Shown here: positions 39,804-56,657 of the stretch, one piece after another
How positions within the stretch are numbered: the first letter of the stretch is position 1
How the letters are laid out: each line of letters starts with the position of its first letter
DNA from: Candidatus Aenigmatarchaeota archaeon
GTDB taxonomy: Archaea; Aenigmatarchaeota; Aenigmatarchaeia; GW2011-AR5; JAHLMP01
Direction of reading: 5' to 3'
Length of the DNA stretch: 64,000 bases
NCBI GenBank assembly: GCA_018920315.1
Contig: JAHLMP010000001.1
Span: forward strand, 68,206-132,205
Program-made: the position numbers and the translations under genes
The notes under the pieces: generated by a model
Told to the model about the DNA's origin: nothing
Database searches by the model: none
The model's input: the letters and a program-made list of their open reading frames with translations, nothing else

Positions 39804-39983
39804 CTCAATAGCGCCCCTATAATAGGTATTATCCTTAAGTGATTACTAAATTCCATGTATCTATTATTCAGTAGCAAGATTTAAAATATTATTTTGTAGT
39901 GCAAAAGGGTTGCAAAGGTAATATGAGAAAAAATGGAATGAAATTGGAGAAATTGAAAAAGAAAACAAAATAAAAAAATATAT

Positions 39984-41945: not shown

Positions 41946-42129
41946 TTCTCCACCTTACTCCTTTGGGTATTTACTCTTGCTCGATGCTTATGGCAGGGCT
42001 TATAGAAAGATTTAAAAATGTTACTTCCTAATAGTAAATAATGCCCTAAGCGTCGAGTAGAGCAAGGCTCTCCAACGGATGCCTTGTTATAGCGCCCCTC
42101 CTCGGCGCTCTCCTTGAGAAAGGAGTATG
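41946..42129 (-). promoter_or_regulatory. GC-rich structured leader element, copy A (184 nt, abuts ATG of 653-aa gene)
   Basis: It is identical to copy C over 71 nt (42059-42129) and over the last ~30 nt. It has three local hairpins plus a long helix. See findings. Confidence 0.6.
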
Positions 42130-42433
42130 AAGATTTTGAGATTTTTAGCTGTTTATTTATAAACTTCAATATTGTCAATTCTTTAGCTCTCAGAAAATTT
42201 TGCAAGATTACTTTTGATTGCCAAAGATTTTGAAATAAGTTCATGGATCTCTTCGCTTACAACATAATTACATATGAATTATTTTTGAATTTCGATTGAA
42301 ATACAAAAAACATACAATTGTAATTTAGAAAAATTTACTTTTATTGATTTCTATACTTGAGTGGGTAATTGATTTGGAATACAAAGAAATTACAAATGTA
42401 ATACAATCAATTAAAGGCTAAAAAGAATTCAAT

Positions 42434-42676
42434 TCAAATCTCTCTAACTATTCTTTCTAAATTTTTCAAAACTTTCAATTTTTTTATTCCAGTAAAAAGT
42501 TTCTTCGTGAGATAGTGAAGTATCTTGGAAAAATCATTTTCTTTCTCGTTTATTATTTTATTTTTTTTAAGAATCTCAAAGATGTTTTTATATGATTGTT
42601 TCGTCTCTGCTCTAATGTTGCTTACTATCTCATTTTCTAAATCTATTGCACAATTTACAATCGAAAATACAAGCAT
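42434..42676 (-). CDS. 80-aa hypothetical; faint DUF86/HEPN-like pattern lacking the R-x4-6-H motif
   Basis: CAIDLENEIVSNIRAETKQSYKNIFEILKKNKIINEKE resembles the middle of DUF86 proteins. An 18-aa ORF fragment upstream (~42760-42815) suggests a decayed longer gene. Confidence 0.25.
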   Translation of the reverse strand: MLVFSIVNCAIDLENEIVSNIRAETKQSYKNIFEILKKNKIINEKENDFSKILHYLTKKLFTGIKKLKVLKNLERIVREI

Positions 42677-42862
42677 AGAACAAATATAAAATTTTATCCA
42701 ATTTTCTTTAATCTTCTGCGTCCTTTATTTTTGTACTTCAAGTTCTCTCTAGTATTTTCTTATATCACATAAGATTTTTCCAACCTTAGCTTTATCAAAT
42801 TTCATATTTTACAATATCGCGGGATTGAGATCTTCTTAGAGAATTTCCATAATAATTTAACT

Positions 42863-44206
42863 TTACACTGCCTTGCCGATTATATATATCCTTCCTCTAT
42901 CGAACGTTCCTATGCAAGGTATTGGGTATTGAATCTTAAACTCTACTTCCATTAATCCTTGATTTGTTAGAATGTGTTCCATAACAGATTTTTGATTGTT
43001 TGGATTTGGCATTGGTATTGGGAGAGCACCATAACATGTTGATCCTTGAAATTCGTTCTTTTCGCAAACTCCATTTCCATTAATATCTTTCCAATAACTT
43101 CCGTCTTTTATTTTACATCCGCTATTCTGATTATATTTGCTCATTTGTACCCATCCTTGCCAGCTCTGCCATTGGGTCCCGCTCCAAGCTCTATACCACA
43201 TGTATTTTTCTATCTCAAGAACGTTGCTGTCTGGACACTTTGCAGCTCCTTGAGAAGCATATAGATCAGTACCTGCTATAAAAGTAAATAGATTTACTCC
43301 TCCTTCTCCGTTGTTCTTCACCTTAATCTTGTTCAAGGAGTGAGCAACTCTTGTTACTGGATCCATAGGACCAAATCTTATTGGTTGGCCATCACTAGTT
43401 GCAACCATCATACCCAAACGTGGATTAAAAAACCATTCTTCGCTGTGCGTTGCGCTTGTAACATTGTTCCTAGAATCAAAAACCTTTAATACTAACTCAT
43501 TTTCTCCATACCAGTTGTCTTCTACGGTTATTATTATTTCAAATGCCTTGTCTGTCATAGGATTAAGAGGTGCGCCCAATCCATCGCATGAATATGGAAG
43601 ATATTGGAGAGGATTTGCTATTGCTTCCTCGCTTCCATTTACAAAAGCTTTAACATAACCAATATCTAATGCTCCATTTGGATCCCTCACAACTATCTTA
43701 TACTTTATTCTTTCTCCTGTGAATGCATACTGGCTAGTTCTCCAATTTAATGGATTAACACCTGGTGGATTTGCTTCCATACCTATATCTAACTCTCTAT
43801 CGTAAATGCATATTGTTGGCGAAAAATCTCCTCCTATAACCGGGATTTTTACCTCAACTCTTAAGGTTATATAAAATGTGTCTGGAACCAAATTTGGTTG
43901 TGCATATATTATTATCGTAAATTTTTTCGGAACATTTGGTTCTAACATAATGCTTGGAGGATATATAATTTGAAATCCTTCTGTATTAGTGTTTTTCGCT
44001 TCAACGCTTACATTCAACTCTGCTTTTACTGTGTTATTTCCATTCCAAATTGCTGTTATCTCTTTTGTAACAGATTCTCCTGCAACCATTTGAATAGTGA
44101 ACTCGCTTGGGTTAAGTATTACTGATTGAGCATAAGAAATGCTAATAAATGAAAGCAATATTGCATTTAATAAAAATGTTATTAATACTCTTTTCATATC
44201 AATCAC
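42863..44206 (-). CDS. 447-aa secreted protein, paralog of the 359-aa protein with an extra N-terminal beta-sandwich
   Basis: A signal peptide. The C-terminal ~330 aa align with ORF 47380..48459, including the identical 28-aa block SDGQPIRFGPMDPVTRVAHSLNKIKVKN and the ending IQYPIPCIGTFD.G.IYIIGKAV. Confidence 0.7.
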   Translation of the reverse strand: MIDMKRVLITFLLNAILLSFISISYAQSVILNPSEFTIQMVAGESVTKEITAIWNGNNTVKAELNVSVEAKNTNTEGFQIIYPPSIMLEPNVPKKFTIIIYAQPNLVPDTFYITLRVEVKIPVIGGDFSPTICIYDRELDIGMEANPPGVNPLNWRTSQYAFTGERIKYKIVVRDPNGALDIGYVKAFVNGSEEAIANPLQYLPYSCDGLGAPLNPMTDKAFEIIITVEDNWYGENELVLKVFDSRNNVTSATHSEEWFFNPRLGMMVATSDGQPIRFGPMDPVTRVAHSLNKIKVKNNGEGGVNLFTFIAGTDLYASQGAAKCPDSNVLEIEKYMWYRAWSGTQWQSWQGWVQMSKYNQNSGCKIKDGSYWKDINGNGVCEKNEFQGSTCYGALPIPMPNPNNQKSVMEHILTNQGLMEVEFKIQYPIPCIGTFDRGRIYIIGKAV

Positions 44207-45230
44207 TCAAATAAAAAATTATCACCTCTTTTAAAACAGGTGTTATTGTCGCGTTGGTAGTTTCAAAAAATGCTTTAAATTTTATGTATCTCGTGTTATC
44301 ATGACCACTCCATATATCGCTATCGCTTGTTGTATAATAAGTTGAACTTGAGCCATCAGGACCAACGAAATTCCAAGTTATGCCATCGTTGTTTGTTGCT
44401 AGTTGGAATTTTAATGAAGTTCCAGTTGGAATATCAGCATCCCAATATAACTTCTTCCATTTAGTTGATGCTGAGTTAGAATCGAAAGCTTGAGATTCAA
44501 ATACTCCAGAAGTTGCATAGCTCTCGACATAGGTTTTAAAGTATATGTCATCATTCGCTTGCTCAGTCCAAGTAGAACCACCATCATCAGATTTAAATCT
44601 TGCTCCATCAGGATAAAAATTGCCCTTATCTTTAATTCTTATTTTATAATCTGCTGTTCCTCTTGATTTTTGTCTTATTACTATTGCATAACTTGTTCCT
44701 GCAATAACATCTGGTGGCGTAGAAAAAGTAAAGTTATACTCTTTATCACTTCCGGTAAAATTAGTATGCGGAATTTCTGCGCTAGCCAAAATCGTGCTTC
44801 CTGGCTTTCCGCCATCAACATTTCTTAATTCTACAACCAAAGGTTGTGGATTATTTCCATCTTGTCCTTTTTTAGCCTTTATTATTACGCTTACCAACTT
44901 GCCTGTTTTTCCTGCTATAAAAGTTTGTGCTTCGTACTTATTAAGCTCAATTTTGCCGCTGTCTTTATCTTCTAATGTTTGACTTTGATCTAAAGATACT
45001 GTTTTAGCTAGCTCAACCTCTCCATTATCAATATTTGTAATTACAACATTTGTTTTAATTCCAGCATTAAAATCCTCATAGGTAGTTTGAATCCATTTTG
45101 GAGATTCTAATACTATGATAGTGGCTACTATTCTTCCATAATAATTCAAAATATCTGCAAACACTATACTTATGAGTATTAATGTTACTAATACTGTTGT
45201 TATTCCAATTCTCCTATTCATTTCATTCAT
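44199..45230 (-). CDS. 343-aa secreted/anchored beta-rich protein, unknown family
   Basis: An N-terminal TM followed by the ILNYYGRIVATIIV motif. It overlaps the downstream gene by 8 nt. Confidence 0.6.
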   Translation of the reverse strand: MNEMNRRIGITTVLVTLILISIVFADILNYYGRIVATIIVLESPKWIQTTYEDFNAGIKTNVVITNIDNGEVELAKTVSLDQSQTLEDKDSGKIELNKYEAQTFIAGKTGKLVSVIIKAKKGQDGNNPQPLVVELRNVDGGKPGSTILASAEIPHTNFTGSDKEYNFTFSTPPDVIAGTSYAIVIRQKSRGTADYKIRIKDKGNFYPDGARFKSDDGGSTWTEQANDDIYFKTYVESYATSGVFESQAFDSNSASTKWKKLYWDADIPTGTSLKFQLATNNDGITWNFVGPDGSSSTYYTTSDSDIWSGHDNTRYIKFKAFFETTNATITPVLKEVIIFYLSD

Positions 45231-45308
45231 CTCTATTTTTCAGGTTAAAATTGTTTTTCAAAATTTGAAAAAAAAAGAAAAAAAGAATAAAAAATCAAGA
45301 TATTAGAG

Positions 45309-45929
45309 TTATCTTGGAACTATATTGATTGTTATCGCATAGGTTCCTGGAATTGCGTTCGGCTTCATTCCTATCTTTACACCACAGAACTTCTGGATCA
45401 TTCCTTCACCAAGTTGGTCGGGTGCTGTTAGTTTGCAAGTTCCGCCACTACAATTCCAATATTGCTGGCTTTTTTGAAGTGGTATTGGAGTAGAGTGATC
45501 GCATGTTTGTGGTTCTTGATCACTTGCTTGATATGTTGCCCATTTTACTTCAAGTAATGACAAGCCGTCAAGAAGATCTTCTGGAAGTATATACTCCCAA
45601 TTGAAATTTATATAGTCCCAACTTCCTTCAACTGGTAGATTGTTTTTTATATAGAATTTATAATCAAATGTTTTGTTATCTCCTCCAACTATGCTTCCAG
45701 TAGGATATGTTAGTGTACATTGTCCGTAATTATCTTTGCCACAAGATTTCCATGTTGAACCATCATCTGAAATTACTAAGGATTGTGTAACATTTACAGT
45801 TCCTGTTATAATTCCGTAATAAGTTAGCAATGCTGCGCTTGCGATTCCTCCAAGAGCGATAAGCATTAATAGAAGCGCTGATACTTCCTTTCCAAGTATT
45901 ACAAATCTCTTAGATAATAATCCTTTCAT
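45309..45929 (-). CDS. 206-aa secreted/anchored protein, unknown family
   Basis: The N-terminus KRFVILGKEVSALLLMLIALGGIASAALLTYYGIITGTVNV, a motif shared with the 343-aa protein. Confidence 0.6.
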   Translation of the reverse strand: MKGLLSKRFVILGKEVSALLLMLIALGGIASAALLTYYGIITGTVNVTQSLVISDDGSTWKSCGKDNYGQCTLTYPTGSIVGGDNKTFDYKFYIKNNLPVEGSWDYINFNWEYILPEDLLDGLSLLEVKWATYQASDQEPQTCDHSTPIPLQKSQQYWNCSGGTCKLTAPDQLGEGMIQKFCGVKIGMKPNAIPGTYAITINIVPR

Positions 45930-46057
45930 TCTTCCAACTCACCTTTTACTTGGGTATTTAGCCTTCTTTAAGAATATTTTTGGAGAAGGCCAAGGCTCTC
46001 CAACGGATGCCTTGTTATAGCGTCCCTCCTCGGCGCTCTCCTTGAAAGAGGAGTATG
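45930..46057 (-). promoter_or_regulatory. GC-rich structured leader element, copy B (128 nt, short variant)
   Basis: It shares the core CATACTCC...GGAGAGCCTTG with A and C (3 substitutions) and has a different short hairpin in place of the long helix. It fills the gap between the 419-aa gene stop and the 206-aa gene ATG. Confidence 0.55.
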
Positions 46058-46070
46058 AAAGGCTATGCAC

Positions 46071-47276
46071 TCAACTCACCCTTCCATAAAGTTTGATATA
46101 ATATCCAGCTCCTCTATTCACAACCCAGCTTTCTCCAACTTGCATTATTCTTTCAGATACATACCAAGAATTTCTCCAAAGCTCTGCTCTGCAGTTTATT
46201 ATCGTGTAAGTAACTCCATTATAATTGAATGTAGAAGGACAAACAACGCTCCAATTCTCAGTTATGAAAATCTCAGTAGGATTAGTAGGTATTGTGGTTG
46301 TTGTGCTTTGACTTATCGTAGTGGTTGTTGTTTGTCCAGGAACTGTAGTAGTTTGTTGAATTGTTGTGGTTGATGATGTAGTAGTTGTTGAAGTAGTAGG
46401 TATTGTGGTTGTTGTGGTTATAGGAGAGTTACAAATTGAAAAGCTATGAACAGAGCAGATAGCAAGCTTTATTAAATTAACAAGATTTTCTAAGAAGCTT
46501 AATCTTGATCTTGTATCTTCTAAACAATTCCAAAGAGTTTCTGCTTTGAAGCTGCTTGAAGACCAATTAGAATAATATTTGCCATCGTAAGCTCTAACTC
46601 TCCAATAATATTTTACGCCCTCGCTTATTGGGATTTTTATCGAAGTGTTAGGAACAATTCCTTTATCTAAAATAATAGAAAAATCGCTGTACTTGCTTAT
46701 CTCATATTGATAAGCAATAATACTACTATCTTGATCACTTGCCTGGCTCCAAGAAAGTATTGCATAGTTTCTACAAATCCTTTCATTGTTTGAAGGGCTT
46801 ATTATACTAGGTTGAGAAGGAGCCTTGCTATTGTTAGAATTTCCTAAATAGTTTGGATTGATATTTACAATTGTTTCCATACTTAAGCTTATTGTTCCAT
46901 CATTTGCTGTGGCTATTATCTTACCGCTTCTTGAGATTGCATCAGAAAGTATTATATAAAGCGTTACATTCTTTGATTCTCCTGCATCTAATTCAAATTC
47001 TCTCTCAGATAGATGAACAAAATCTTTTATGTTATCAGTAACGCTTAATGTAATTCTTTCAGGAATGCTTCCTGGATTCCCATATCTTAATTGATGAGAA
47101 ACAATTGTTAATTCTCCCACTTTAACATTAGGATTAGAAACAACATTATAAGGAATTGAAAGCTCTGCAGCATAAGAATTTGAGAATAGAAATGAGATTA
47201 TTAATATTAAGATTAACCTTCTTACATTTTTTACTAAATTTTCATATTCTATTTCTCTAATTTTTACCATTTTCAT
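46071..47276 (-). CDS. ~400-aa secreted protein: beta-sandwich + FN3-like + Thr-rich linker + conserved C-terminal domain
   Basis: The track start at 47330 is TTG; the ATGs at 47276/47270 precede the signal peptide LILILIISFLFSNSYAAE. It has the FN3-like PSQPSIISPSNN...YYWRVRAYDGKY, a TTTTIPTTSTTTTSSTTT linker, and the C-terminal CRAELWRNSWYVSERIMQVGESWVVNRGAGYYIKLY. Confidence 0.7.
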   Translation of the reverse strand: MKMVKIREIEYENLVKNVRRLILILIISFLFSNSYAAELSIPYNVVSNPNVKVGELTIVSHQLRYGNPGSIPERITLSVTDNIKDFVHLSEREFELDAGESKNVTLYIILSDAISRSGKIIATANDGTISLSMETIVNINPNYLGNSNNSKAPSQPSIISPSNNERICRNYAILSWSQASDQDSSIIAYQYEISKYSDFSIILDKGIVPNTSIKIPISEGVKYYWRVRAYDGKYYSNWSSSSFKAETLWNCLEDTRSRLSFLENLVNLIKLAICSVHSFSICNSPITTTTTIPTTSTTTTSSTTTIQQTTTVPGQTTTTTISQSTTTTIPTNPTEIFITENWSVVCPSTFNYNGVTYTIINCRAELWRNSWYVSERIMQVGESWVVNRGAGYYIKLYGRVS

Positions 47277-47379
47277 CAGCTTTTTAATTTTAAATCTCAA
47301 ATTTACGCCAAAAGGTTTGAAATTTTTCAAAAAACAAAAAAGAAAAAATCAAAAAATTCTTTTTAGTTTTCTATTTACT

Positions 47380-48459
47380 TTACACTGCCTTACCAATTAT
47401 GTATATCTTTCCGCTGTCGAATGTTCCTATGCATGGTATTGGATATTGAATCTTGAATTCTATCTCTAGCAATCCTCCATTTGTTAGTATGTGCTCTAGT
47501 ACATCGTCATCATCATCTGGATCTGGCATAGGCACTGGAAGACCTCCGTAGCATGTTGGTCCTTTATACTCGGTTGAAACATCGCACATACTATTGGTGT
47601 TAGTATCATTCCAATAGTCGGATGTTAAATTATTTCCTACATTGCATCCATCGTTCTGGTTGTATTTGCTCATGTTTGTCCATCCCTGCCAGCTCTGCCA
47701 TGAAGTGCCTGACCATGCCCTGTACCACATGTATTTTTCTATTTCAAGAACATTGCTTGTTGGACACTTCGCTGCTCCAGTTGTGTCAAACAAATCAGTA
47801 CCTGCTATGAAAGTAAATAGGTTAACTCCTCCTTCTGCTGTGTTCTTTACCTTAATCTTGTTCAAGGAGTGAGCAACTCTTGTTACTGGATCCATAGGAC
47901 CAAATCTTATTGGTTGGCCATCACTTGTTGTAACTTGCATTCTCAACTCTGGGTTAAAGAACCACTCTTCGCTGTGCGTTGCGCTTGTTGCTACATTCTG
48001 AGAGTTGAAGACCTTCAAAAGAACTTCCATCGGACCATGCCAACTGTCTTCAACTGTTATTATTATCTTGAATCTCTTGTCTGTAGTGCTATTAACACGT
48101 CCAAGCCCGTCACAAAATATATTACCTAATGATATTTCGCTCGCCAAAGCCTCCTCATGTCCTCCGACAAAGGCCTTTACAAAGCCTATGTCTAATGCTC
48201 CGTTAGGGTCTCTTACTATAACATCATATATTATTCTCTCTCCTGTAAATGCATAAAGACTAGTTCTCCAATCCAATGGGTTAACCCCCGGTGGATTTGC
48301 TTGTGTTCCTATTTCTATATCTCTGTGATAAATACATATCGTTGGTGGCAAGTCGCCTGGCTGTGCTGATACTCCAACATCGCCAACAACTACATCAGCA
48401 AAAGCAGGCACTACTAGTAACAAACTTGCTAGTATCGCGAATAAAGCAAACTTTTTCAT
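47380..48459 (-). CDS. 359-aa secreted protein, paralog of the 447-aa protein
   Basis: Signal peptide FAILASLLLVVPAFA, and alignment with 42863..44206 over its whole mature length. Confidence 0.7.
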   Translation of the reverse strand: MKKFALFAILASLLLVVPAFADVVVGDVGVSAQPGDLPPTICIYHRDIEIGTQANPPGVNPLDWRTSLYAFTGERIIYDVIVRDPNGALDIGFVKAFVGGHEEALASEISLGNIFCDGLGRVNSTTDKRFKIIITVEDSWHGPMEVLLKVFNSQNVATSATHSEEWFFNPELRMQVTTSDGQPIRFGPMDPVTRVAHSLNKIKVKNTAEGGVNLFTFIAGTDLFDTTGAAKCPTSNVLEIEKYMWYRAWSGTSWQSWQGWTNMSKYNQNDGCNVGNNLTSDYWNDTNTNSMCDVSTEYKGPTCYGGLPVPMPDPDDDDDVLEHILTNGGLLEIEFKIQYPIPCIGTFDSGKIYIIGKAV

Positions 48460-48643
48460 TTCTCCACCTTACTCCTTTGGGTATTTACTTCTACTTGGCG
48501 CTTAGGGCAAAGCTTACAGAAAGATTTAAAAATGTTACTTCCTAATAGTAAATAATGCCCTAAGCGCCGAGCAGAGCAAGGCTCTCCAACGGATGCCTTG
48601 TTATAGCGCCCCTCCTCGGCGCTCTCCTTGAGAAAGGAGTATG
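48460..48643 (-). promoter_or_regulatory. GC-rich structured leader element, copy C (184 nt, abuts ATG of 359-aa gene)
   Basis: Same length and register as copy A. It has a perfect 12-bp inverted repeat GGCGCTTAGGGC/GCCCTAAGCGCC around an AT-rich 48-nt loop. Confidence 0.6.
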
Positions 48644-49230
48644 ATTTTTGAGAAATTTCGCAAAGGTTTTGCTCTTTCATTAATTCAAAAGAGCTATTCC
48701 CTGATAATTTTATTAAAGAATCGCTAAAACTTTGCGCCCCTCTTCCAATATTTTGCAACCTAGTAGCGATAAACATCATAATGAATACCTAACTATTAAC
48801 ATTTAAAATATTTACTACCTATACGTGAGTAATACAAACGCATTACATGTTACAATTGTAATGCGGTAAATTTTTGAGTATATTTGAAAATATTTTTATT
48901 ACTTTTAGATAATTACTTATGCTCTAAGAATTATCAATGAGAATTATCGAAAAGATTTTTAAGAGATTTTCTATAATTCTTGAGATTGCTATTTAGCTTT
49001 TTGGTAGGAGAAATAAGAGGTGGATTGAAGGACAGAGAAGAAGTGGAAAAGAATTATTAGCAAGGAAAATATTAAAAGCTCTGAAAAATGCATATTGCGA
49101 GCGATTGCCAAAGATTGGTATTATGGGAAAAGAATTTACCTTTTATCAAGTTTAGTTATATTCTTTATTCTCCCTATCTTAAACGGTATCTTAAATAATT
49201 ATGCAATCATGTAATTTTGAATTTTTATAA

Positions 49231-50526
49231 TCATTTTGAGCGATCTATTAGTAACCATTTCCAGAGAGGCGAGCATTTTATTTTCTTGCCGTTAATTTTG
49301 AGATCGTCTTCATAATCCCATGTAATTATCAAAAGATTTTTACAGCGTAAAAGCTTGCTCGCTTTTAGTAAAGCTTTGAGCTCTCGTTTCTCTATCTCAT
49401 CTTTTGCGCTAGCGTAAGTTACTTGAATCAATTGCTTAACTCTCAAGCCCTCTTTCAAGACAAAATCAACTTCGTTTTGTTGATAATCTTTCCAGTAGAA
49501 AATTTCTAGAGCATTAGAGAAGTAGCTTTTCCTTCTTAAAAGTTCTACTGCAACTACATTCTCAATTATCTTGCCAATGTCTTCTGACAATTTAAAGCCT
49601 ATAGCATTTACTATTCCTGTATCATTACAATAAACCTTTTTTGGTGCAATAAATTGTTCTTTTAGTTTTGGAGAAAACCTATTAATTATCTTTATAAGAT
49701 AAGCTTCTTCCATCCCATCTATCCAATCTTTTATAGTGTGCAAATCTTTTATTTCAAATATATTTTTCAATTTGGAGAGTGTTATTTCACAAGAAGAGTT
49801 TGATATGAGATACTTTGCAACCTCTTTAAATATAGATTTTTTCTTTATTTTTAGCCTTCTTATAATATCTTTCTCAACTATGTCTGAGAATATTCTTACT
49901 ATAATTTCCCTTCCAAGTAAATAAGCTTCTGGAAGACCGCCTATCCTTAAATAATCGTTAAGACTCTTCTTTACTAATGCTATACTCTTAGTTGAATAAA
50001 GATATTCTTTGCCAATTGCTACATTGTTATAATTTAAAAATTCATAGAAACTAAATGGAAATAAAGTGAAGTCTATATATCTTCCTGTTAATCTACTTGC
50101 AAGTTCTCCTGAAAGCAATCTTGAATTGCTTCCAGTTAATATTATTTTTTTCGTTCTTCTCAGCCTATTAACAAAAAGCTCCCAGTTATCGATATTATGT
50201 GGCTCATCAAGAATTATATGATCCACTTCTCCATATAATTCGTAAAAGCTTTGCAATAACTTTTCAAAATCTCTTGCATGAAATTCAGCTAATCTTTCGT
50301 CATCAAAATTTATGTACCCATAATTTGTCCCTTCAAAAATTTGCAATGAAAAAATGGATTTGCCACATCTTCTAATCCCTAAAACTACTAGTATATTTGG
50401 CGCAGAAAGATATTTTCTAAGCTTGCTTTTATCAACCTCTCTTTCAATTATCTTTGTTTTTTCAAACTTCTCTTTTATCTCTTCCCTTTGAGCTATTACA
50501 ACCCTTTTAATTTCCTCGGTTTCCAT
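49231..50526 (-). CDS. AAA+ ATPase with DUF4143-type C-terminal domain (COG1373-like), paralog 1
   Basis: Walker A GIRRCGKS, Walker B IILDEPHNI, and the C-terminal NEVDFVLKEG...KQLIQVTYA (PD-(D/E)xK-like pattern). Confidence 0.8.
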   Translation of the reverse strand: METEEIKRVVIAQREEIKEKFEKTKIIEREVDKSKLRKYLSAPNILVVLGIRRCGKSIFSLQIFEGTNYGYINFDDERLAEFHARDFEKLLQSFYELYGEVDHIILDEPHNIDNWELFVNRLRRTKKIILTGSNSRLLSGELASRLTGRYIDFTLFPFSFYEFLNYNNVAIGKEYLYSTKSIALVKKSLNDYLRIGGLPEAYLLGREIIVRIFSDIVEKDIIRRLKIKKKSIFKEVAKYLISNSSCEITLSKLKNIFEIKDLHTIKDWIDGMEEAYLIKIINRFSPKLKEQFIAPKKVYCNDTGIVNAIGFKLSEDIGKIIENVVAVELLRRKSYFSNALEIFYWKDYQQNEVDFVLKEGLRVKQLIQVTYASAKDEIEKRELKALLKASKLLRCKNLLIITWDYEDDLKINGKKIKCSPLWKWLLIDRSK

Positions 50527-50527
50527 G

Positions 50528-50572
50528 ATATTATATTCACAAACATTTTTAAAAAGTTTGTGAATATAATAT
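50528..50572 (-). promoter_or_regulatory. palindromic promoter/operator of paralog 1
   Basis: Perfect 17-nt arms ATATTATATTCACAAAC / GTTTGTGAATATAATAT flank ATTTTTAAAAA. The centre is 24 nt upstream of the ATG at 50526. Confidence 0.55.
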
Positions 50573-50597
50573 AATGTATTCCTTATCTTTTCATCAT

Positions 50598-51923
50598 TTA
50601 TCTAGGTAAAAGTAGCCATTTCCAAAGAGGTAAGCATTTTATTTTCTTTCCTTTAACTTTAATCTCGTCTTCATAATCCCATGTAATTAAAAGCAAATCC
50701 TTGCATTTCAGCTCATTGCTCGCTTTTATCAAAGCTTTTATTTCTCTTTTTTCAATCTCATCTTTACTTGAAGCGTAAGTTACTTGAATGAGTTGTTTAA
50801 TTTTTAGTCCCTCTTTTAAAACAAAATCTACTTCGTTTTGTTGATAATCTTTGAAGTAAAAAATTTCTGAATTATTGTATAAGTAATTTTTTCTTCTCAG
50901 GAGCTCTATAGCAACACAATTCTCCATTATCCTACCTAAGTTTTCCATAAACCTAAATCCAAGTAAAGTAAAGAAAGATATATCCATTAAGTAAACTTTT
51001 TTTGGAGATTTTTCTTGCGTTTTAACACTGAAAGAAAATCTTTTTATAAATTCGACCATTCTAACAATTTGAAAGTACTTCACGAATCTTTCTGTAGTTT
51101 TCAAGGGGGTTTCTAAAGTTTTACTAATATTTCTAATGTTTACTAAAGAAGATGGATTTGAAATTAGAAATCTTCCAATTGCTCTTAAATATTCATCTGC
51201 CCTTATCTTATATCTTTTCTCAATATCCTTAATAATAATTGTTTCCCAATAGCTCTCTACTATTCTTTTTCTTTTCTCCTCGTTCTTTTCTAAAACAATT
51301 TCAGGAAACCCTCCAATTTTTAGATACTCGATTATTAATTTTTTAAATAAGGAAGATTTCAAAAGAATATCTCTTTCAGAAATCTCAATATTGTTAAAAA
51401 TAAGAAATTCCTTAAAGCTAAGAGGAAGTATTTCAAAATTTATACATCTACCGGCTAAAATAGACTCAAACTCTTCTGCCATTAATTTTGCGCTACTTCC
51501 AGAAATAATTATATTTGCCTCGTTTCTTTCATGCAAACTTCTAACAAACATTTCCCAAAATTTAACTTCCTGAATTTCATCAAGAATAATTAATGGCTTT
51601 CCTTTTGGTTGAATAAACTCTTTATAAGCTTCATAAACATTAATCAAAAAATCTTTATTCAAGTTTGTTGGAAATTTCATTTCCTCGAAGTTTACATATA
51701 GTACGTTAGATGAGTCCTTTAATTTAGAAATCTCTTTGGCTATTTGCCTTAAGATATAAGATTTTCCAGACCTTCTTATTCCAAAAATGCTGATTATTTT
51801 ATTAACTCCTTCTAAACTAGAAAGAATTTCTTGAGTATATAAATCTCTCTTTATTCCAGTTTCTATTCCTTCGCCCCAAAAATTCCAACTCGAAAGAATT
51901 TCTATTATCTTCATCTTTTCCAT
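50598..51923 (-). CDS. AAA+ ATPase/DUF4143-type, paralog 2
   Basis: Walker A GIRRSGKS, Walker B IILDEIQEV, and the conserved C-terminus NEVDFVLKEGLKIKQLIQVTYA. Confidence 0.8.
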   Translation of the reverse strand: MEKMKIIEILSSWNFWGEGIETGIKRDLYTQEILSSLEGVNKIISIFGIRRSGKSYILRQIAKEISKLKDSSNVLYVNFEEMKFPTNLNKDFLINVYEAYKEFIQPKGKPLIILDEIQEVKFWEMFVRSLHERNEANIIISGSSAKLMAEEFESILAGRCINFEILPLSFKEFLIFNNIEISERDILLKSSLFKKLIIEYLKIGGFPEIVLEKNEEKRKRIVESYWETIIIKDIEKRYKIRADEYLRAIGRFLISNPSSLVNIRNISKTLETPLKTTERFVKYFQIVRMVEFIKRFSFSVKTQEKSPKKVYLMDISFFTLLGFRFMENLGRIMENCVAIELLRRKNYLYNNSEIFYFKDYQQNEVDFVLKEGLKIKQLIQVTYASSKDEIEKREIKALIKASNELKCKDLLLITWDYEDEIKVKGKKIKCLPLWKWLLLPR

Positions 51924-51930
51924 AAGTTAT

Positions 51931-51966
51931 TATATGACACAAAAATATATAAATTTGTGTCATATA
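51931..51966 (-). promoter_or_regulatory. palindromic promoter/operator of paralog 2
   Basis: Perfect 13-nt arms TATATGACACAAA / TTTGTGTCATATA flank AATATATAAA. The centre is ~25 nt upstream of the ATG at 51923. Confidence 0.55.
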
Positions 51967-52095
51967 TTAACCTTATTTATAAATAAAATCTAAAACTATC
52001 AGACGTAATTTCTTAGAGATATTTTCAGAGATCTTAAAATCTTAGTGTCATATTAATCCCGTAGCCAAAAATATTTAGATCTGAAATATTAAGCT

Positions 52096-53367
52096 CTAAG
52101 TTAGTAACCATTTCCAGAGAGGCGAGCATTTTATTTTCTTGCCGTTAATTTTGAGATCGTCTTCATAATCCCATGTAATTACAAGCAAATCCTTGCATTT
52201 AAGCTCTTTGCTTGCTTTGAGCAAGGCTTTGAGCTCTCGTTTCTCTATCTCATCTTTTGCGCTAGCGTAAGTTACTTGAATCAATTGCTTAACTCTCAAG
52301 CCCTCTTTTAAAACAAAATCAACTTCGTTTTGTTGGTAATCCTTCCAGTAGAAAATCTCAAGCAGAGCATTAGTTGCCTGTCTTCTCTTCAATTCTAAGA
52401 AAACACTGTTTTCCATGCTCCTTCCAATATTCTCTGAAAATCTTGAATATTTTTTAATGAAAAATGTATCCACCAACATAACTTTTCTTGGAGCTTTTAA
52501 TCTATACTTTATTTTTGGTGAGAAAATCTCAACAAAATAAGCGAATAATGATGTTTCTAAGTAATAAATATAGTTAGCAAGAGTGCTTTTTCCAATCTTA
52601 TATCCTAAAGACTGAAATGTGTTATACAAGCTGCTTATTGTTATATAAGTTGAATTTAGAAGAATTCTTACCAATTCTCTTACAAGTTCTCTATTTCTAA
52701 TCCTATACCTTTCTAAAATATCTCTTATTAAAAAAGTTTTGAAATACTCTTCGATCAATAAATATTTCTTTCCTTTTTCAGAAAGTACTATCTCTGGCAA
52801 ACCACCAAAATTTATGTATTCATTTAGCAAATTCAGAATTAAAGGCTCGCTTAACTTCTCTAATTCTTCATTTCTGAATTTTAAAAATTCTTTGAATGAA
52901 AGTGGGTAAAGCTCTATAGTTAAACATCTTCCCCTTAGCTCTGTTGGTATCTCTTTGCTAGAAAGTTTGGATGAAGAACCAGAAATAAAAATTTGATAAT
53001 TTCTTGTATCTAAAATTCTTCTAACCCATTTGCTCCAATTTGGAATATTTTGAATTTCATCTAGCAAAAGAATTAACCTCTTTCTTCCATACTCTTCTTT
53101 GAGCACTTCACTCAAATATGTAAGAGTTTTTATATCTTGTGGTATTCTTTCGTCCTCAAAGTTTATGTATAGAGTTTCTTCTTTTTTCATCTTCTTTGCT
53201 ATCCAAAACAAAAGAAAGGTTTTGCCAGTTCTCCTAAATCCTATTATAGGTATTGTTTTTATTACATTCCAATCTATGAATGCTGTCGGATCTACACATC
53301 TTTCTATTATTGGAGGTAATTCCCTTTCTCTCCACTCCTTCACTAAACTTTTTAATGTTTGTTTCAT
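52096..53367 (-). CDS. AAA+ ATPase/DUF4143-type, paralog 3
   Basis: Walker A GFRRTGKT and Walker B LLLDEIQNI. The track start at 53388 is TTG and lies inside the promoter palindrome. The ATG at 53367 (MKQTLKSLVKEW...) aligns with the other paralogs. Confidence 0.78.
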   Translation of the reverse strand: MKQTLKSLVKEWRERELPPIIERCVDPTAFIDWNVIKTIPIIGFRRTGKTFLLFWIAKKMKKEETLYINFEDERIPQDIKTLTYLSEVLKEEYGRKRLILLLDEIQNIPNWSKWVRRILDTRNYQIFISGSSSKLSSKEIPTELRGRCLTIELYPLSFKEFLKFRNEELEKLSEPLILNLLNEYINFGGLPEIVLSEKGKKYLLIEEYFKTFLIRDILERYRIRNRELVRELVRILLNSTYITISSLYNTFQSLGYKIGKSTLANYIYYLETSLFAYFVEIFSPKIKYRLKAPRKVMLVDTFFIKKYSRFSENIGRSMENSVFLELKRRQATNALLEIFYWKDYQQNEVDFVLKEGLRVKQLIQVTYASAKDEIEKRELKALLKASKELKCKDLLVITWDYEDDLKINGKKIKCSPLWKWLLT

Positions 53368-53377
53368 AATGTATTTA

Positions 53378-53411
53378 TCATAGTACAAAAATAAATATTT
53401 TTGTACTATGA
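53378..53411 (-). promoter_or_regulatory. palindromic promoter/operator of paralog 3
   Basis: Perfect 16-nt arms TCATAGTACAAAAATA / TATTTTTGTACTATGA with a 2-nt spacer. The centre is ~27 nt upstream of the ATG at 53367. Confidence 0.55.
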
Positions 53412-53518
53412 GAAAAATTTTGATGAAAGATCATTTACCTCTTTCAAATTTATGGAATATAGGCTCAACTCTTTACCAACATAAACTTTATAAAAACTTT
53501 ACCATAATAACAAAACAC

Positions 53519-54811
53519 TTAATACTTCGTTACCTTGTCTTTCAAAAACCACTTCCACAATGGCAAGCATTTTATTTTCTTGTCTTTAATTTTGATTTCA
53601 TTTTCATAATCCCATGTAATTACAAGCAAATCCTTGCATTTAAGCTCTTTGCTTGCTTTGAGCAAAGCTTTGAGCTCTCGTTTCTCTATCTCATCTTTTG
53701 CGCTAGCGTAAGTTACTTGAATCAATTGCTTAACTCTCAAGCCCTCTTTTAAAACAAAATCAACTTCATAATCATTTGAGTTGAAGTAAAATATCTCGTT
53801 AATTTTTCCTTCGAATTTTTTCTTCAAGAGTTGAATGGCTACTAAGTTTTCAATTTTTTTCCCAATATCTCTTGAGAATCTCGGCTCAATCCCAAAATAA
53901 ACATTATCAACTAAATAAACCTTAGCAGGGTATTGTGCTCTTTCACTATACTTTAGAGAAAATCTCTTCACAGGAAAAACAAAAAGAGCTTCTTCTACGT
54001 ACCTTAAGTAATTTGCTAAAGTCTTTTTACTAATTTTAAAACCAAATGATTTGAGTGAATTCTCAATTTTTGATATTGAAACATAAGAGGAAGAATTTGT
54101 TATACAATATCTGACAAAATAATCCATAAGTGCTATATTTTTAATTTTGAATCTTTCTATCAAGTCCTTGAAGAATATTGTAGCAAAATAAGTTCTTGCA
54201 ATTTCAAGTTTTTTATTTTTATCATCAGCCAAAAGAATTTCTGGATACCCGCCAAATTCAACATAATCTTTCAAAAGCCTTAAAATTTCTCCAGTTTTTG
54301 CTTCAGAAAATTCTTTTTCAATTTTGAATTTTTTAATTTCGAGAAATTCTCTGAAGTTGAAAGGAAAAATTATAAAAGAAATACATCTTCCTCTCAGCTC
54401 TGTTGAAATTTCTTTGCTTAAAAGTTTTGAAGAAGAGCCAGAAATTATTATTTTATATTTTTGAAGATTGTGTAAAGCTCTTATAAAAGAAGACCAGTTC
54501 TCAAGCTCTTGAATTTCATCTAAGAAAAGAAAGATCTTGCCTTCAAATAAGGAATTCACTTCTTTCAAAAATTCGGAAATCCCAACTTTTTTTGTTCTTG
54601 GATCAGTAAAATCCACGTAAACAACATTTTCTTTGCTGAATTTCTTCTCAAAAAGCTCTTTTATGAGTTGAAACATGAAGTAAGTTTTTCCTGCTCTTCT
54701 TGGTCCTATTATTGAAGCTATATGATTATTCATCCAAAATTTTATCTCTCTTTTAACTATGTTTTGTGGTAGCTCTTTCTCTTTCCATTCTAACAAAACT
54801 TCTCTTAACAT
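53519..54811 (-). CDS. AAA+ ATPase/DUF4143-type, paralog 4
   Basis: Walker A GPRRAGKT and Walker B LFLDEIQEL. The track start at 54877 extends through the promoter palindrome. The ATG at 54811 (MLREVLLEWKEKELP) matches the paralog N-termini. Confidence 0.78.
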   Translation of the reverse strand: MLREVLLEWKEKELPQNIVKREIKFWMNNHIASIIGPRRAGKTYFMFQLIKELFEKKFSKENVVYVDFTDPRTKKVGISEFLKEVNSLFEGKIFLFLDEIQELENWSSFIRALHNLQKYKIIISGSSSKLLSKEISTELRGRCISFIIFPFNFREFLEIKKFKIEKEFSEAKTGEILRLLKDYVEFGGYPEILLADDKNKKLEIARTYFATIFFKDLIERFKIKNIALMDYFVRYCITNSSSYVSISKIENSLKSFGFKISKKTLANYLRYVEEALFVFPVKRFSLKYSERAQYPAKVYLVDNVYFGIEPRFSRDIGKKIENLVAIQLLKKKFEGKINEIFYFNSNDYEVDFVLKEGLRVKQLIQVTYASAKDEIEKRELKALLKASKELKCKDLLVITWDYENEIKIKDKKIKCLPLWKWFLKDKVTKY

Positions 54812-54821
54812 AAAAGAAATA

Positions 54822-54854
54822 TAGGAAACAAAAATATATATTTTTTGTTTCCTA
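54822..54854 (-). promoter_or_regulatory. palindromic promoter/operator of paralog 4
   Basis: 13-nt arms TAGGAAACAAAAA / TTTTTGTTTCCTA flank TATATAT. The centre is 27 nt upstream of the ATG at 54811. Confidence 0.55.
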
Positions 54855-54983
54855 CAGGGAAATATAACTATATACACAAATATTCGAATATTTATATATC
54901 AAAATGCAAATTGATATTAAAAACATTCTACTATCGAAGCTATTACTTAAAATACGTGAAATTATAAAAATTGTGCGCTATCT

Positions 54984-56243
54984 TCAACTTAAAAGCCACT
55001 TCCATAAAGGCTTGAAAACAATTCTTTTATTCTTAACTTTAATCTCGTCTTCATAATCCCATGTAATTACAAGCAGATCCTTGCACTTCAGCTCTTCACT
55101 TGCTTTGAGCAAAGCTTTTATTTCCCTTTTTTCTATCTCATCTTTACCGGAAGCATAGGTTACTTGAATTAATTGCTTTATTTTCAACCCTTCCTTCAAA
55201 ACAAAATCAACTTCCCCACTCAAAGCACTAAAATAATAAATTTCACAATTCTTAAACCTTCTTTTAAGTTCAAGAAAGACAACATTTTCCATCAACTTCC
55301 CCCAGTCTGTAGAAAATCTTGGAGAAAAGAATTTTATTAAACCATTATCCACGACATAAACTTTTTTCTGTGTTTTTATAGTTTCTTTTACTTTTCTTTC
55401 AAACTTTTCAACAGAAAAAATCAAGAAAACGTCTTCCAACATTTTTACAAACTCTATTACAGTATTTTTTGAAATTTTAATCCCAGAAGATGTTAATATG
55501 TTTTGCAGCTTGGAATAAGTGTAGTAAGAAGAAAAATTTGAAACTAAAACTTTTGTCAAGAATTCGAGTGTCTTAATTTTTTTCACTTTAAACCTTTCAA
55601 CTATATCCTTGTAAAAAACACCATCTTTTATCGAAATTAGTAAATCTTGATGAAGATGTGGCTTAAGAACAGTTTCTGGAAAACCTCCTTTTTCAATATA
55701 TTCGTTTAGCATTTTAAGCAAAACCCCCCTTTCGGTATAAATTGAAAACTTATCTTCTTCAAATCTCTTAGCTCTGAGAAATTCCTTGAAAGAAAAAGGA
55801 AAAACAAAAACACCTATAGCTCTCCCCCTTAATTGAGTGGCAATTTCTTTGCTCAAAAGCTTTGAAGAAGAACCTGTGAGAAAAATTCTATAACCTCTGT
55901 CATAAAGTTCTCTAATACCAATTGGCCAATCTTTCACAACTTGTATTTCATCCAAAAACAAATTTTTTGGTTTTTCTCCATAAAGTTCTTGATATGCAGT
56001 AATCATATCATTGAAATTTTTGGCAGACGCACCAATTAGGTTTCCTCTTTCAAAGTTTATGAAAAGACAATCTTTCTTACCCATTTCCTTAATTTTTTGA
56101 TAGAGCAAGTAAGTTTTTCCACTTCTTCTAGGCCCAACTATTGTTACAAGATTATGCTCAGGAATTTCTATTTCCCTTTCTACCAAATCAGGAAGTTCAT
56201 ATTTTTCGAATTCTGCTATAGCCGCCTTGAATTCCTCTTTCAT
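54984..56243 (-). CDS. AAA+ ATPase/DUF4143-type, paralog 5
   Basis: Walker A GPRRSGKT and Walker B LFLDEIQVV. The track start at 56264 is TTG inside the palindrome, so the ATG at 56243 (MKEEFKAAIAEF) is preferred. Confidence 0.78.
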   Translation of the reverse strand: MKEEFKAAIAEFEKYELPDLVEREIEIPEHNLVTIVGPRRSGKTYLLYQKIKEMGKKDCLFINFERGNLIGASAKNFNDMITAYQELYGEKPKNLFLDEIQVVKDWPIGIRELYDRGYRIFLTGSSSKLLSKEIATQLRGRAIGVFVFPFSFKEFLRAKRFEEDKFSIYTERGVLLKMLNEYIEKGGFPETVLKPHLHQDLLISIKDGVFYKDIVERFKVKKIKTLEFLTKVLVSNFSSYYTYSKLQNILTSSGIKISKNTVIEFVKMLEDVFLIFSVEKFERKVKETIKTQKKVYVVDNGLIKFFSPRFSTDWGKLMENVVFLELKRRFKNCEIYYFSALSGEVDFVLKEGLKIKQLIQVTYASGKDEIEKREIKALLKASEELKCKDLLVITWDYEDEIKVKNKRIVFKPLWKWLLS

Positions 56244-56250
56244 AATGTAT

Positions 56251-56290
56251 AGTATAGTGGACAAATATTTAAATTTTTGTCTAATATACT
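56251..56290 (-). promoter_or_regulatory. palindromic promoter/operator of paralog 5 (imperfect)
   Basis: 15-nt arms AGTATAGTGGACAAA / TTTGTCTAATATACT (2 mismatches) flank TATTTAAATT. The centre is ~27 nt upstream of the ATG at 56243. Confidence 0.45.
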
Positions 56291-56296
56291 ATTAGG

Positions 56297-56395
56297 TTAT
56301 TTTTCCAAAAGCCACTTCCATAAAGGCTTGAAAACAATTCTTTTATTATTCACTTTAACTTCATCTTTGTACTTCCATCTCGATCTCATAAGATA
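56297..56395 (-). pseudogene. 3'-terminal remnant of a sixth ATPase paralog
   Basis: Reverse translation gives ...RWKYKDEVKVNNKRIVFKPLWKWLLEK*, which matches the last ~30 aa of paralog 5 (VKNKRIVFKPLWKWLLS). The nucleotide string ccacttccataaaggcttgaaaacaattcttttatt is identical to that around 54995-55030. No upstream ATPase body is present. Confidence 0.7.
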
Positions 56396-56657
56396 CTTTT
56401 AGCGCAAAGCCCCTAAAAAATTAAACTATCAACAAATTCTAGAATTGCATGTGAATCAAAAAATATATGTTGTCAATTAAATTTCTACTTATCTCTTTTA
56501 CAATTCTTCTCTTTTTCTCTGAGTTGTAAAAATCTTATAGTAAGCTAGACTTATAGTCACCATGAAATTAAATTATTATAAAAATTTTGAAAATTTTCAA
56601 ATATTTAAAATCTCATTTGCAAAACAATACATGAATAAAACTTATTTTATATTCGAT

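Follow-up and report, generated by a model that had tools for sequence, protein, structure and literature searches.

The repeated element and its family

A GC-rich element that recurs directly upstream of three genes was analyzed in a stretch of 64,000 nucleotides (nt) of DNA (contig JAHLMP010000001.1, positions 68,206 to 132,205), referred to here as the window. The window is archaeal chromosomal DNA, with genes for RNA polymerase B, a GatE-like protein, ArgRS and deoxyhypusine synthase, and it comes from an uncultured hot-spring archaeon of the Aenigmatarchaeota (DPANN) with a 31% GC chromosome. The closest relatives in a genome scan were Candidatus Aenigmatarchaeota from the JZ hot spring. 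The genes of interest are located on the minus strand in the order 359 and 401/419 amino acids (aa), preceded by copy C of the element; 206, 343 and 447 aa, preceded by copy B; a HepT-like fragment; 653 aa, preceded by copy A; and 1443 aa. The 206-aa gene is the first of the run of 206-, 343- and 447-aa genes, the 419-aa open reading frame (ORF) is annotated as 401 aa, and the 359-aa protein is present in identical form in three metagenome-assembled genomes at NCBI.

A first-pass annotation, made from the sequence letters, had reported the copies at 41946-42129 (A), 45930-46057 (B) and 48460-48643 (C), and all three were confirmed on the minus strand. A 49-nt core matched the window three times at ≤1 mismatch, compared with 0 matches expected in shuffled sequences. 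The copies, with their scores from a covariance model (CM), and a possible relic are as follows.

48460 to 48644, minus strand: copy C, beginning at its 5′ boundary UCAUACUC and ending immediately before the ATG of the 359-aa gene; CM score, 94.7 bits
45930 to 46059, minus strand: copy B, with a short fourth hairpin (GCCUUCU/AGAAGGC), before the 206-aa gene; CM score, 89.8 bits
41946 to 42131, minus strand: copy A, with a long fourth hairpin, 94% identical to C, before the 653-aa gene; CM score, 94.7 bits
39808 to 39818, minus strand: possible relic AGGGGCGCTAT, equivalent to the 3′ half of the second hairpin plus the junction; exact 11-mer, 0.01 expected by chance

Copies A and C are identical over 71 nt (42059-42129 and 48573-48643) and again over the final 30 nt before the ATG, as the annotation had stated; in total there are 12 differences in 184 nt, and blastn aligned the two at 93.8% identity over 194 nt. 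Copy B shares with them only a 69-nt core (95.7%) and TAAATACCCAA. Homology among the copies begins sharply at TCATACTC. The GC content was 57% for a 67-nt core and 62.5% for a 48-nt invariant part, compared with 31.3% for the window, bearing out an earlier hand count of about 55% for the core in AT-rich DNA. The 653-, 206- and 359-aa proteins exhibited no mutual BLASTP similarity at E ≤ 0.01, in agreement with their earlier description as unrelated, and the N-termini of all three resemble signal peptides. The 11-mer AGGGGCGCTAT, described in the annotation as a relic 5 nt before the ATG of the 1443-aa gene, is indeed present; it was not detected by the CM and is absent from the single orthologous locus that carries the downstream large (1443-aa) gene (L012; loci outside the window are given L numbers here).

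Exact-pattern scans, one of them using a pattern with free stem positions, detected copies in two other genomes and in five metagenome stretches. The scan of relatives with a CM built from the copies, which had been proposed in the first-pass annotation, was performed on the flanks of homologues of the 653- and 359-aa proteins using a model of the second and third hairpins, and it added one copy of the close-clade type (L012) and further, diverged copies at L018, L019 (two), L020 (two) and L023. In total, 16 copies were collected from about 10 lineages. Each of the 16 lies on the gene strand and immediately precedes the start codon of a signal-peptide gene, and the genes behind the element belong to at least six families, including BNR-like and beta-helix proteins. 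Orthologues of the 653-aa gene with identities of ≥64% carry the element, with the core still identical where the 653-type proteins are down to 64% identity, and those at 55% and 46% are without it, as are three 359-like loci at 46 to 48% identity. At a locus fetched through a 32%-identical homologue of the 359 family (P0086), the element was still recognizable, before another paralogue of that family.

The CM search yielded no further copies in the window and none in the distant orthologue loci L013 to L015 or in L021, L022 and L024; a weak match in L022 falls in an unrelated coding region. No stray copies were present elsewhere across 200 kb of loci, and a scan of viral contigs with the core gave 0 matches. 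The annotation had not recognized any RNA family here, and a CM search against Rfam 15 at the gathering threshold likewise gave 0 matches in the whole window. At E ≤ 10, the region 39700-49300 produced only chance sub-threshold matches, such as that of a plant microRNA model to the opposite strand over the long hairpin (31.6 bits, with a threshold of 90). A scan for tRNA and transfer-messenger RNA detected none, and a literature search with the core and tail sequences returned only unrelated primer matches.

Two of the collected loci are irregular. At L018 3650-3771, a degenerate copy (12 bits) has a damaged second hairpin and a deleted third one, and the expected start of the signal-peptide gene reads ATA instead of ATG; this is possibly a gene decaying together with its leader. 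At L002 2482-2979, a run of N (a scaffold gap) replaces the end of the homologue of the 419-aa gene and the 5′ half of copy B, indicating that assemblies break at the repeat.

RNA structure of the element

Read from 5′ to 3′ on the gene strand, the element consists of the boundary AU(G/A)CUC, hairpins H1 and H2, the junction UAUAA, hairpin H3, the variable hairpin H4, the tail UAAAUACCCAA, a Shine-Dalgarno (SD) sequence and the start codon. The parts of copy C are as follows.

48624 to 48639, minus strand: H1, CUCCUU / UCUC loop / AAGGAG
48606 to 48622, minus strand: H2, GCGCC / GAGGAGG loop / GGCGC
48577 to 48600, minus strand: H3, CAAGGC-A-[UCC GUU GGA]-GA-GCCUUG
48488 to 48576, minus strand: H4, long and variable; the two 12-bp arms are 48557-48568 and 48497-48508
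48477 to 48487, minus strand: tail UAAAUACCCAA, invariant and single-stranded
48462 to 48468, minus strand: SD sequence GGUGGAG of the 359-aa gene, whose start codon is at 48457-48459

The closing pairs of H1 (C-G, U-A/G and C-G) are fixed across the family, and its distal pairs covary. H1 and H2 are linked by a single A, with longer linkers in L018a and L023. The H2 stem is uniform in all copies except for one mispair in B, and its loop of 7 to 8 nt occurs as GAGGAGG, GAGCGAGG, GAGAGAGG or GAGCGUGG, so that the SD-like appearance of the first of these is not maintained. The H2-H3 junction is UAUAA-like. In diverged copies, the inner hairpin of H3 changes from UCC-GUU-GGA to GC-UUU-GC, and the A/GA internal loop is kept. 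The tail contains CCCAA in every copy except the degenerate one at L018:3650 (CCCGA), and an SD sequence (GGUG, GGAGG or GGGGGA) follows 8 to 15 nt beyond it.

H4 has a fixed site and a variable length, and its arms differ completely in sequence between species and yet pair. It ranges from a 2-bp GC..GC clamp (L010 and L012) through hairpins of 5 to 8 bp (B, L004, L007 and L023) to long hairpins of about 20 to 30 bp with species-specific arms (A and C of the window, L005, L016 and L011). The fourth helix that had been described for copy C was confirmed: a perfect 12-bp pairing of GGCGCTTAGGGC with GCCCTAAGCGCC closes a 48-nt AT-rich loop holding the TATA-like TTTTTAAAT, and H4 of copy A has mismatches and one compensated pair. 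Short H4 variants are found in orthologues of the 653-aa gene elsewhere, and hence the A-C identity is due in part to recent copying within the genome. Recombination among copies was also apparent in that A carries the H4 of C and L007 mixes modules.

The AT-rich apical part of H4 (48509-48556 in C and 41995-42042 in A), with the pattern ..TTATTTACT..GTAACATTTTTAAA.., is kept across species (L005, L011 and L016), in contrast to the arms. This apical part includes a TATA-like consensus box and stays free of stops in the leader frame described below, the inserts being 78, 96 and 114 nt long and each divisible by 3; it may act as a second, internal promoter or represent a module that was inserted. 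An invertible promoter in H4 was rejected, because its arms differ from species to species and a spacer of 48 bp is not long enough.

The first-pass annotation had drawn the first three hairpins on paper. From nine short copies, RNAalifold recovered exactly these three hairpins de novo (H1, H2 and H3), and five of the pairs were doubly changed; the folding of copy C relative to shuffled sequences gave z = −6.0. In the CM alignment, 98.9% of the H2/H3 cells were paired and three pairs had changed on both sides; the covariation score was reached by 0 of 500 shuffles and collapsed in slid controls. The absence of compensatory changes in homologues had been named as grounds for abandoning the finding; compensatory changes were instead observed once the diverged copies were included, in H1, H3, the closing pair of H2, and H4. 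In L020b, A-U is replaced by G-C both in the H2 closing pair and in H3, with L019b showing the G-U intermediate, and the next H3 pair changes from G-C to A-U in L023, so that two pairs of the H3 outer stem covary overall. Pairs 4 to 6 of H1 occur as CG/UA/AU, UA/GC/AU and UA/CG. The H4 arms, although unrelated in sequence, are GC rich and paired in every lineage of a 31% GC genome, and GC-rich variable arms in H1 and H4 are as expected for an RNA folding at hot-spring temperature. A conserved fold with covariation, such as characterizes the aptamer of a riboswitch, was therefore present.

A translational switch had also been proposed, in which the 5′ strand pairs alternatively with a sequence just before the SD site. 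This pairing (ACUCCUUU with AAAGGAGU) is genuine in A and C, where it extends over 9 bp (P = 0.002 to 0.006 versus shuffled tails), and matched changes are present in L004 and L007. Pairing of the 5′ strand with the pre-SD/SD region exceeded that of shuffles in 4 of 15 copies (A, C, L007 and L011) and not in the 11 others, and the SD sequence is mostly predicted to be unpaired; a conserved SD-sequestering switch is, therefore, not supported for the family. A pseudoknot between CCCAA and UUGG of the H3 loop was ruled out by the loss of UUGG in diverged copies, and pairing of the junction with the tail showed no consistent covariation. On inspection, a kink-turn (L7Ae) motif was rejected as well, since the H2 loop GAGGAGG lacks a GA directly 5′ of the 3′ stem strand and H1 lacks a 3-nt bulge.

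These analyses indicated that the element is a sense-strand structured RNA and not a promoter box, and that it represents a real, conserved and previously undescribed structured RNA family of the Aenigmatarchaeota.

The spanning reading frame, start-site signals and neighboring genes

A stop-free reading frame spans the whole element in 15 of 15 copies, compared with about 4.9 expected from dinucleotide shuffles. In 12 of 15 copies, against about 1.9 expected, the open frame includes the one whose stop forms an ATGA or GTGA overlap with the main start codon. In other copies, the stop lies 0 nt (L004), 5 nt (L018a), 9 nt (copy B) or 3 nt (L023) before the start codon, and in L020a there is no stop and the leader frame runs on in frame with the main gene. 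The −4/−1 overlap or very short gap of a termination-reinitiation pair was thus found. The upstream ORFs (uORFs) of the window and the candidate promoter of the C unit are as follows.

48456 to 48779, minus strand: uORF through copy C, 107 codons; its stop TGA overlaps the main ATG (ATGA)
45939 to 46070, minus strand: uORF through copy B, 43 codons; its stop is 9 nt before the ATG of the 206-aa gene
41942 to 42244, minus strand: uORF through copy A, 100 codons; its stop overlaps the main ATG
48801 to 48846, minus strand: candidate promoter of the C unit, with the palindrome GTAATGC-N4-GTATTAC at 48829-48846 and the TATA box TTTTAAAT at 48801-48808

Across the copies, uORF lengths range from 43 to 134 codons. 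The uORF start has the spacing of a leaderless transcript, with an ATG 21 nt after a TATA box, in C (ATG at 48779), L007, L016 and L011; in L005, L018, L019 and L023 it is a conserved GGTGAA..ATG; and in B a GTG start directly follows the stop of the 419-aa ORF (TGAGTG). Element-less 359-like genes have short leaders, with only 13 to 39 nt stop-free upstream. The peptide itself is not conserved, because the same conserved bases are read in different frames across copies: E-P-C alternates with R-A-L, and V-N-T-Q with G-K-Y-P-T. The core contains indels of +1 and −2, the differences between A and C and between C and L007 are mostly nonsynonymous, the N-terminal parts are unrelated, and leader peptides share only the stretch imposed by the RNA core. 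No conserved peptide motif or codon run, as would be used for attenuation, was detected in the leader ORFs. As the frame is in excess without peptide conservation and element-less genes have no uORF, the open frame tracks the element; the frame seems to be under selection, but its product does not.

The 107-aa ORF of the C unit is called a gene in NCBI records; it was rejected as a real protein on the grounds that the frame of the core and tail differs, the changes are nonsynonymous and there is no NCBIfam match. The "hypothetical proteins" of 85 to 130 aa upstream of these genes are most likely not real proteins. A short leader peptide starting at ATGCTC (ML.S..ERRGGAL*) was also rejected, as all window copies have ATA in place of ATG and L010 does not maintain the frame. 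With respect to the first-pass annotation, its conserved, structured, gene-strand element fused to the SD sequence and start codon was upheld; its untranslated leader was not, since the spanning ORF is present in every copy.

In five cases (C, L007, L016, L011 and L019), the palindrome GTAAT(A/G)C-N4-GTATTAC and a consensus TATA box are located 130 to 250 nt upstream of the element and likely constitute its promoter; for C, the promoter and uORF start are about 135 nt further upstream of the element. Just before the TATA box of the C unit (48829-48862, minus strand), conserved palindromes ATTACAATTGTAA and GTAATGC-N4-GTATTAC are present, as they are also in L007, L011, L016 and L019, and the half-sites TTGTAAT and GTATTAC recur upstream of other copies; these palindromes are likely a transcription factor operator. 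A small RHH_1 (CopG-like) gene is located upstream in L019, L020 and L023, divergently in the first two. Such a divergent regulator was considered and rejected, as it is seen in L019 and L020 and none is present upstream of C in the window. Among 44 ORFs of the window, 16 have a TATA-like hexamer ending 19 to 27 nt before the start and 10 have an SD sequence, with one having both.

A structure model of the 359-aa protein (predicted local distance difference test score, 82) is a tandem beta-sandwich with a weak likeness to bacterial adhesins, and the 343-aa protein has a choice-of-anchor R domain; sequence searches of the 359- and 653-aa proteins against the PDB gave no match. The 653-aa and 401/419-aa proteins have in common a C-terminal domain of about 85 aa (39984-40240 and 46071-46330; 45% identity) with the pattern ..CRAELWRN.W..SER.M..GE.W.VNR.AGY.IKLY. 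The 1443-aa protein resembles the 401-aa protein at its N-terminus and has repeats in common with a 903-aa archaeal protein (32567-35278), in which NCBIfam models matched three beta-barrel domains of the OmpL47 type (E = 1e-33); this family takes its name from a surface protein of Leptospira. This sharing of modules among the 653-, 401/419-, 1443- and 903-aa proteins indicates that the cluster is a mosaic. In distant relatives, Exosortase_EpsH (archaeosortase-like) genes (L019 493-1062 and L020 693-1304) and a gene for a 907-aa Peptidase_M73/LTD protein (L020 8307-11030) adjoin element-bearing genes, which fits a cell surface gene island.

Upstream of the C unit, six tandem paralogous genes of 426 to 452 aa are present at 49231-57959 (minus strand), the first being of the AAA_14 plus DUF4143 (archaeal ATPase) type; about 22 nt before the ATG, several of them show a separate TATA box of the leaderless type, and the family also adjoins the element in L001, L012 and L016. 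Between the B operon and copy A, an 80-aa ORF (42434-42676, minus strand) gives a partial HepT-like (HEPN ribonuclease) match. Complete HEPN/nucleotidyltransferase pairs are located near element-bearing genes in L016, L018 and L023; in L021 such a pair is near an element-less 359-like gene, and L019 has the nucleotidyltransferase gene only. This proximity may reflect the mere abundance of such modules in these genomes.

Interpretation and comparison with known systems

The explanation that we tentatively put forward is that the element is a new cis-regulatory RNA operator within a translated leader, gating the hand-over of ribosomes to genes for secreted proteins. The element would form the final 100 to 200 nt of a long 5′ leader transcribed from the upstream promoter. 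The leader frame would start near the transcription start, either leaderless or with its own GGUGAA SD sequence, and its ribosomes would melt through the whole fold and end on or beside the main start codon. About 60 bases are invariant (H2, the junction, the outer stem and internal loop of H3, and CCCAA), and hence a trans-acting factor may recognize the H2-junction-H3 core plus tail, most probably an RNA-binding protein and less probably a small ligand. The factor would set whether the leader ribosomes pass the fold and reinitiate at the SD-led gene (termination-reinitiation), so that several unrelated surface-protein operons could be switched together posttranscriptionally. Precedents exist for parts of this scheme: strict coupling by overlapping stop/start (ATGA) pairs has been shown in archaea (PMC6728339), and leaderless short ORFs in mycobacteria control downstream genes via mRNA structure (bioRxiv 10.1101/834739).

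Several observations weigh against this explanation. The five inner pairs of H2 never covary, and single changes in H2 or H3 (in B and L007) break a pair; base identity therefore matters in these stems, a constraint that a DNA-binding site would explain equally well. The SD sequence is unpaired in most predicted minimum free energy folds, the alternative pairing with the pre-SD/SD region is confined to the 4 of 15 copies mentioned above, and the folds offer no obvious on/off rearrangement. No protein emerged as a candidate for binding the element. In copy A, a TATA-like TTTATAAATA is located about 24 nt before the 5′ boundary of the element, where a transcript would begin with ATA and have no AUG; leader translation may, therefore, not be universal. 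The sample of 16 copies from about 10 lineages is small, the pair counts come partly from a model-fitted alignment, and identity between copies inside one genome is inflated by gene conversion.

A bolder form of the proposal, which we consider doubtful, is that this is the first cis-regulatory RNA family of DPANN archaea and defines a novel kind of posttranscriptional regulon, with an ultraconserved four-hairpin operator in a "carrier" frame whose factor-gated relay switches the whole surface repertoire. The carrier frame would serve solely to conduct ribosomes across the fold, in many cases after a leaderless start, and on to the secreted-protein gene. The relay would be blocked or permitted by a dedicated RNA-binding protein or by a ligand, which might signal contact with the host or the secretion load. 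To our knowledge, very few archaeal cis-regulatory RNAs have been described, and none in DPANN archaea.

Action of the element as DNA appears improbable. It could be a promoter or operator cassette whose palindromes AGCGCC-N7-GGCGCT and CAAGGC-N12-GCCTTG bind a transcription factor, and at the same low level of probability TAAATA would be a weak TATA box giving a leaderless mRNA. The outer stems of H2 and H3 show hardly any sequence variation, as would be expected of such a site, and in the close clade TAAATA and the ATG are 22 nt apart, which equals the spacing of leaderless TATA boxes in this genome. In diverged copies, however, TAAATA changes to TAATA, TAAATG or TAAGTT and the spacing drifts between 21 and 27 nt, while CCCAA and the strong SD sequence persist. 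Every copy has a strong SD sequence, although the leaderless TATA geometry is commoner in the window. As the box decays, SD and leaderless geometries are nearly exclusive and a likelier promoter lies upstream, TAAATACCC/TAAATA was rejected as a leaderless TATA box. Furthermore, H1, H4 and the inner part of H3 change in sequence and still pair, including gene-strand G-U pairs, none of which a double-stranded site needs, and an insert of 78 to 114 bp is tolerated between the supposed operator and TATA box. We regard as similarly unlikely a module for mRNA stabilization or processing, in which GC-rich hairpins shield abundant surface-protein mRNAs from 5′ exonucleases after cleavage at AU(G/A)CUC, as well as its variant in which H1 to H3 are released as a 5′-leader-derived small RNA acting in trans. 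Long structured leaders are known for surface-layer mRNAs, the element has a sharp, conserved 5′ boundary that lies 3 nt from a hairpin, and the folds are predicted to be stable at 70°C. Structure alone would suffice for such a role, yet about 60 nt are invariant in sequence; a spanning ORF ending at the start codon is left unexplained, and no consistent T-run terminator follows H3. A riboswitch, with the H2-junction-H3-tail core binding a small molecule and altering SD access or ribosome passage, is given slightly less weight still. Its appeal lies in the aptamer-like pattern, in which the loops, the junction and the internal loop are invariant while the peripheral stems are free and one hairpin varies in length, and in a tail 8 to 15 nt from the SD sequence; the lack of conserved alternative pairing and of any Rfam match, and genes that are structural or adhesin-like with no metabolic theme, argue otherwise.

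Two further alternatives fit the data poorly. It is very unlikely that the element is a selfish or neutral repeat, either like a miniature inverted-repeat transposable element (MITE) or a gene conversion tract, that lies before genes by chance. The 94% identity of A and C over 194 nt, set against the different H4 variants in orthologues of the 653-aa gene, the pairing in L007 of a C-type upstream region with a 653-type gene, and the break in assembly at the repeat are what a mobile or converting sequence might produce. Against this, the position relative to the start codon is fixed, the element occupies orthologous places in many genomes, and copies are lacking elsewhere in the window and loci and in viral contigs. 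Inspection revealed no terminal inverted repeats or target duplications, and a MITE- or insertion sequence-derived repeat was rejected on these grounds, together with the site fixed to the start codon. An integron attC site was rejected likewise, as TATAAC and GTTGGAG are not complementary, the element is fused to the downstream start codon, and no recombinase was present among the scanned neighbors. Least probable of all, and extremely so, is that the uORF encodes a functional small protein and that the nucleotide conservation reflects coding. The frame is open in all copies and is called a gene in NCBI and JGI records, but the conserved bases fall in two or three frames depending on the copy, the N-terminal parts bear no relation to one another, most substitutions are nonsynonymous, and there were no family matches.

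As a structured RNA, the element marks, and probably coregulates, adhesin-like and other secreted proteins, and its compact motif provides a search key for such genes in metagenomes. It points to control by RNA and leader ORFs in tiny-genome organisms with few transcription factors. DPANN biology depends on contact with the host surface, and the organisms are not yet genetically tractable; a structured operator in a nonconserved frame could be tested in heterologous archaeal reporters.

The proposed leader operator resembles several known systems in part. In leader-ORF control (ermC/cat, SecM-secA and the mycobacterial leaderless Cys short ORFs; bioRxiv 10.1101/834739), a device is common to several operons, as it is here. 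In those systems, however, the information resides in the peptide or codons (an arrest motif or a Cys run) and the RNA structure is idiosyncratic, whereas the present element leaves the peptide free and has about 60 invariant nt of RNA; moreover, the ORF is long (43 to 134 codons) and covers the entire fold, and the organism is an archaeon. Termination-reinitiation at ATGA/TGATG pairs (PMC6728339, PMC10666635) likewise involves an overlap with the SD sequence inside the upstream ORF. Those pairs consist of two real protein genes, often encoding one complex, while the upstream partner here seems to be a nonconserved carrier frame enclosing a conserved RNA fold. We could find no close described counterpart of an invariant fold inside a nonconserved frame that ends on the regulated start.

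RNA operators shared between operons, each recognized by one protein, include the ribonucleic antiterminator elements of BglG/SacY, the leaders bound by CsrA/RsmA and the Methanococcus L1 operator in the L1 ORF. In these, too, a sequence-plus-structure motif is repeated before unrelated operons, and the Methanococcus L1 site is also in a translated region; the present element has no resemblance to them in sequence or structure and is much larger (four hairpins plus a tail). Riboswitches also have conserved junctions and loops, covarying stems, a peripheral hairpin of variable length and a site just before the SD sequence, but the element matches no Rfam class and has neither a conserved expression platform rearrangement nor a metabolic gene context. 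Correia- and ERIC-type repeats are hairpin-forming MITEs upstream of genes. The element is similar to them in being a hairpin repeat before genes, with a long H4 that is insertion-like in its inverted arms and promoter-like box; in contrast to them, the element as a whole has no terminal inverted repeats or target duplication, occupies orthologous sites and is always fused to an SD sequence and start codon. As a kind, it belongs with the cis-regulatory leaders.

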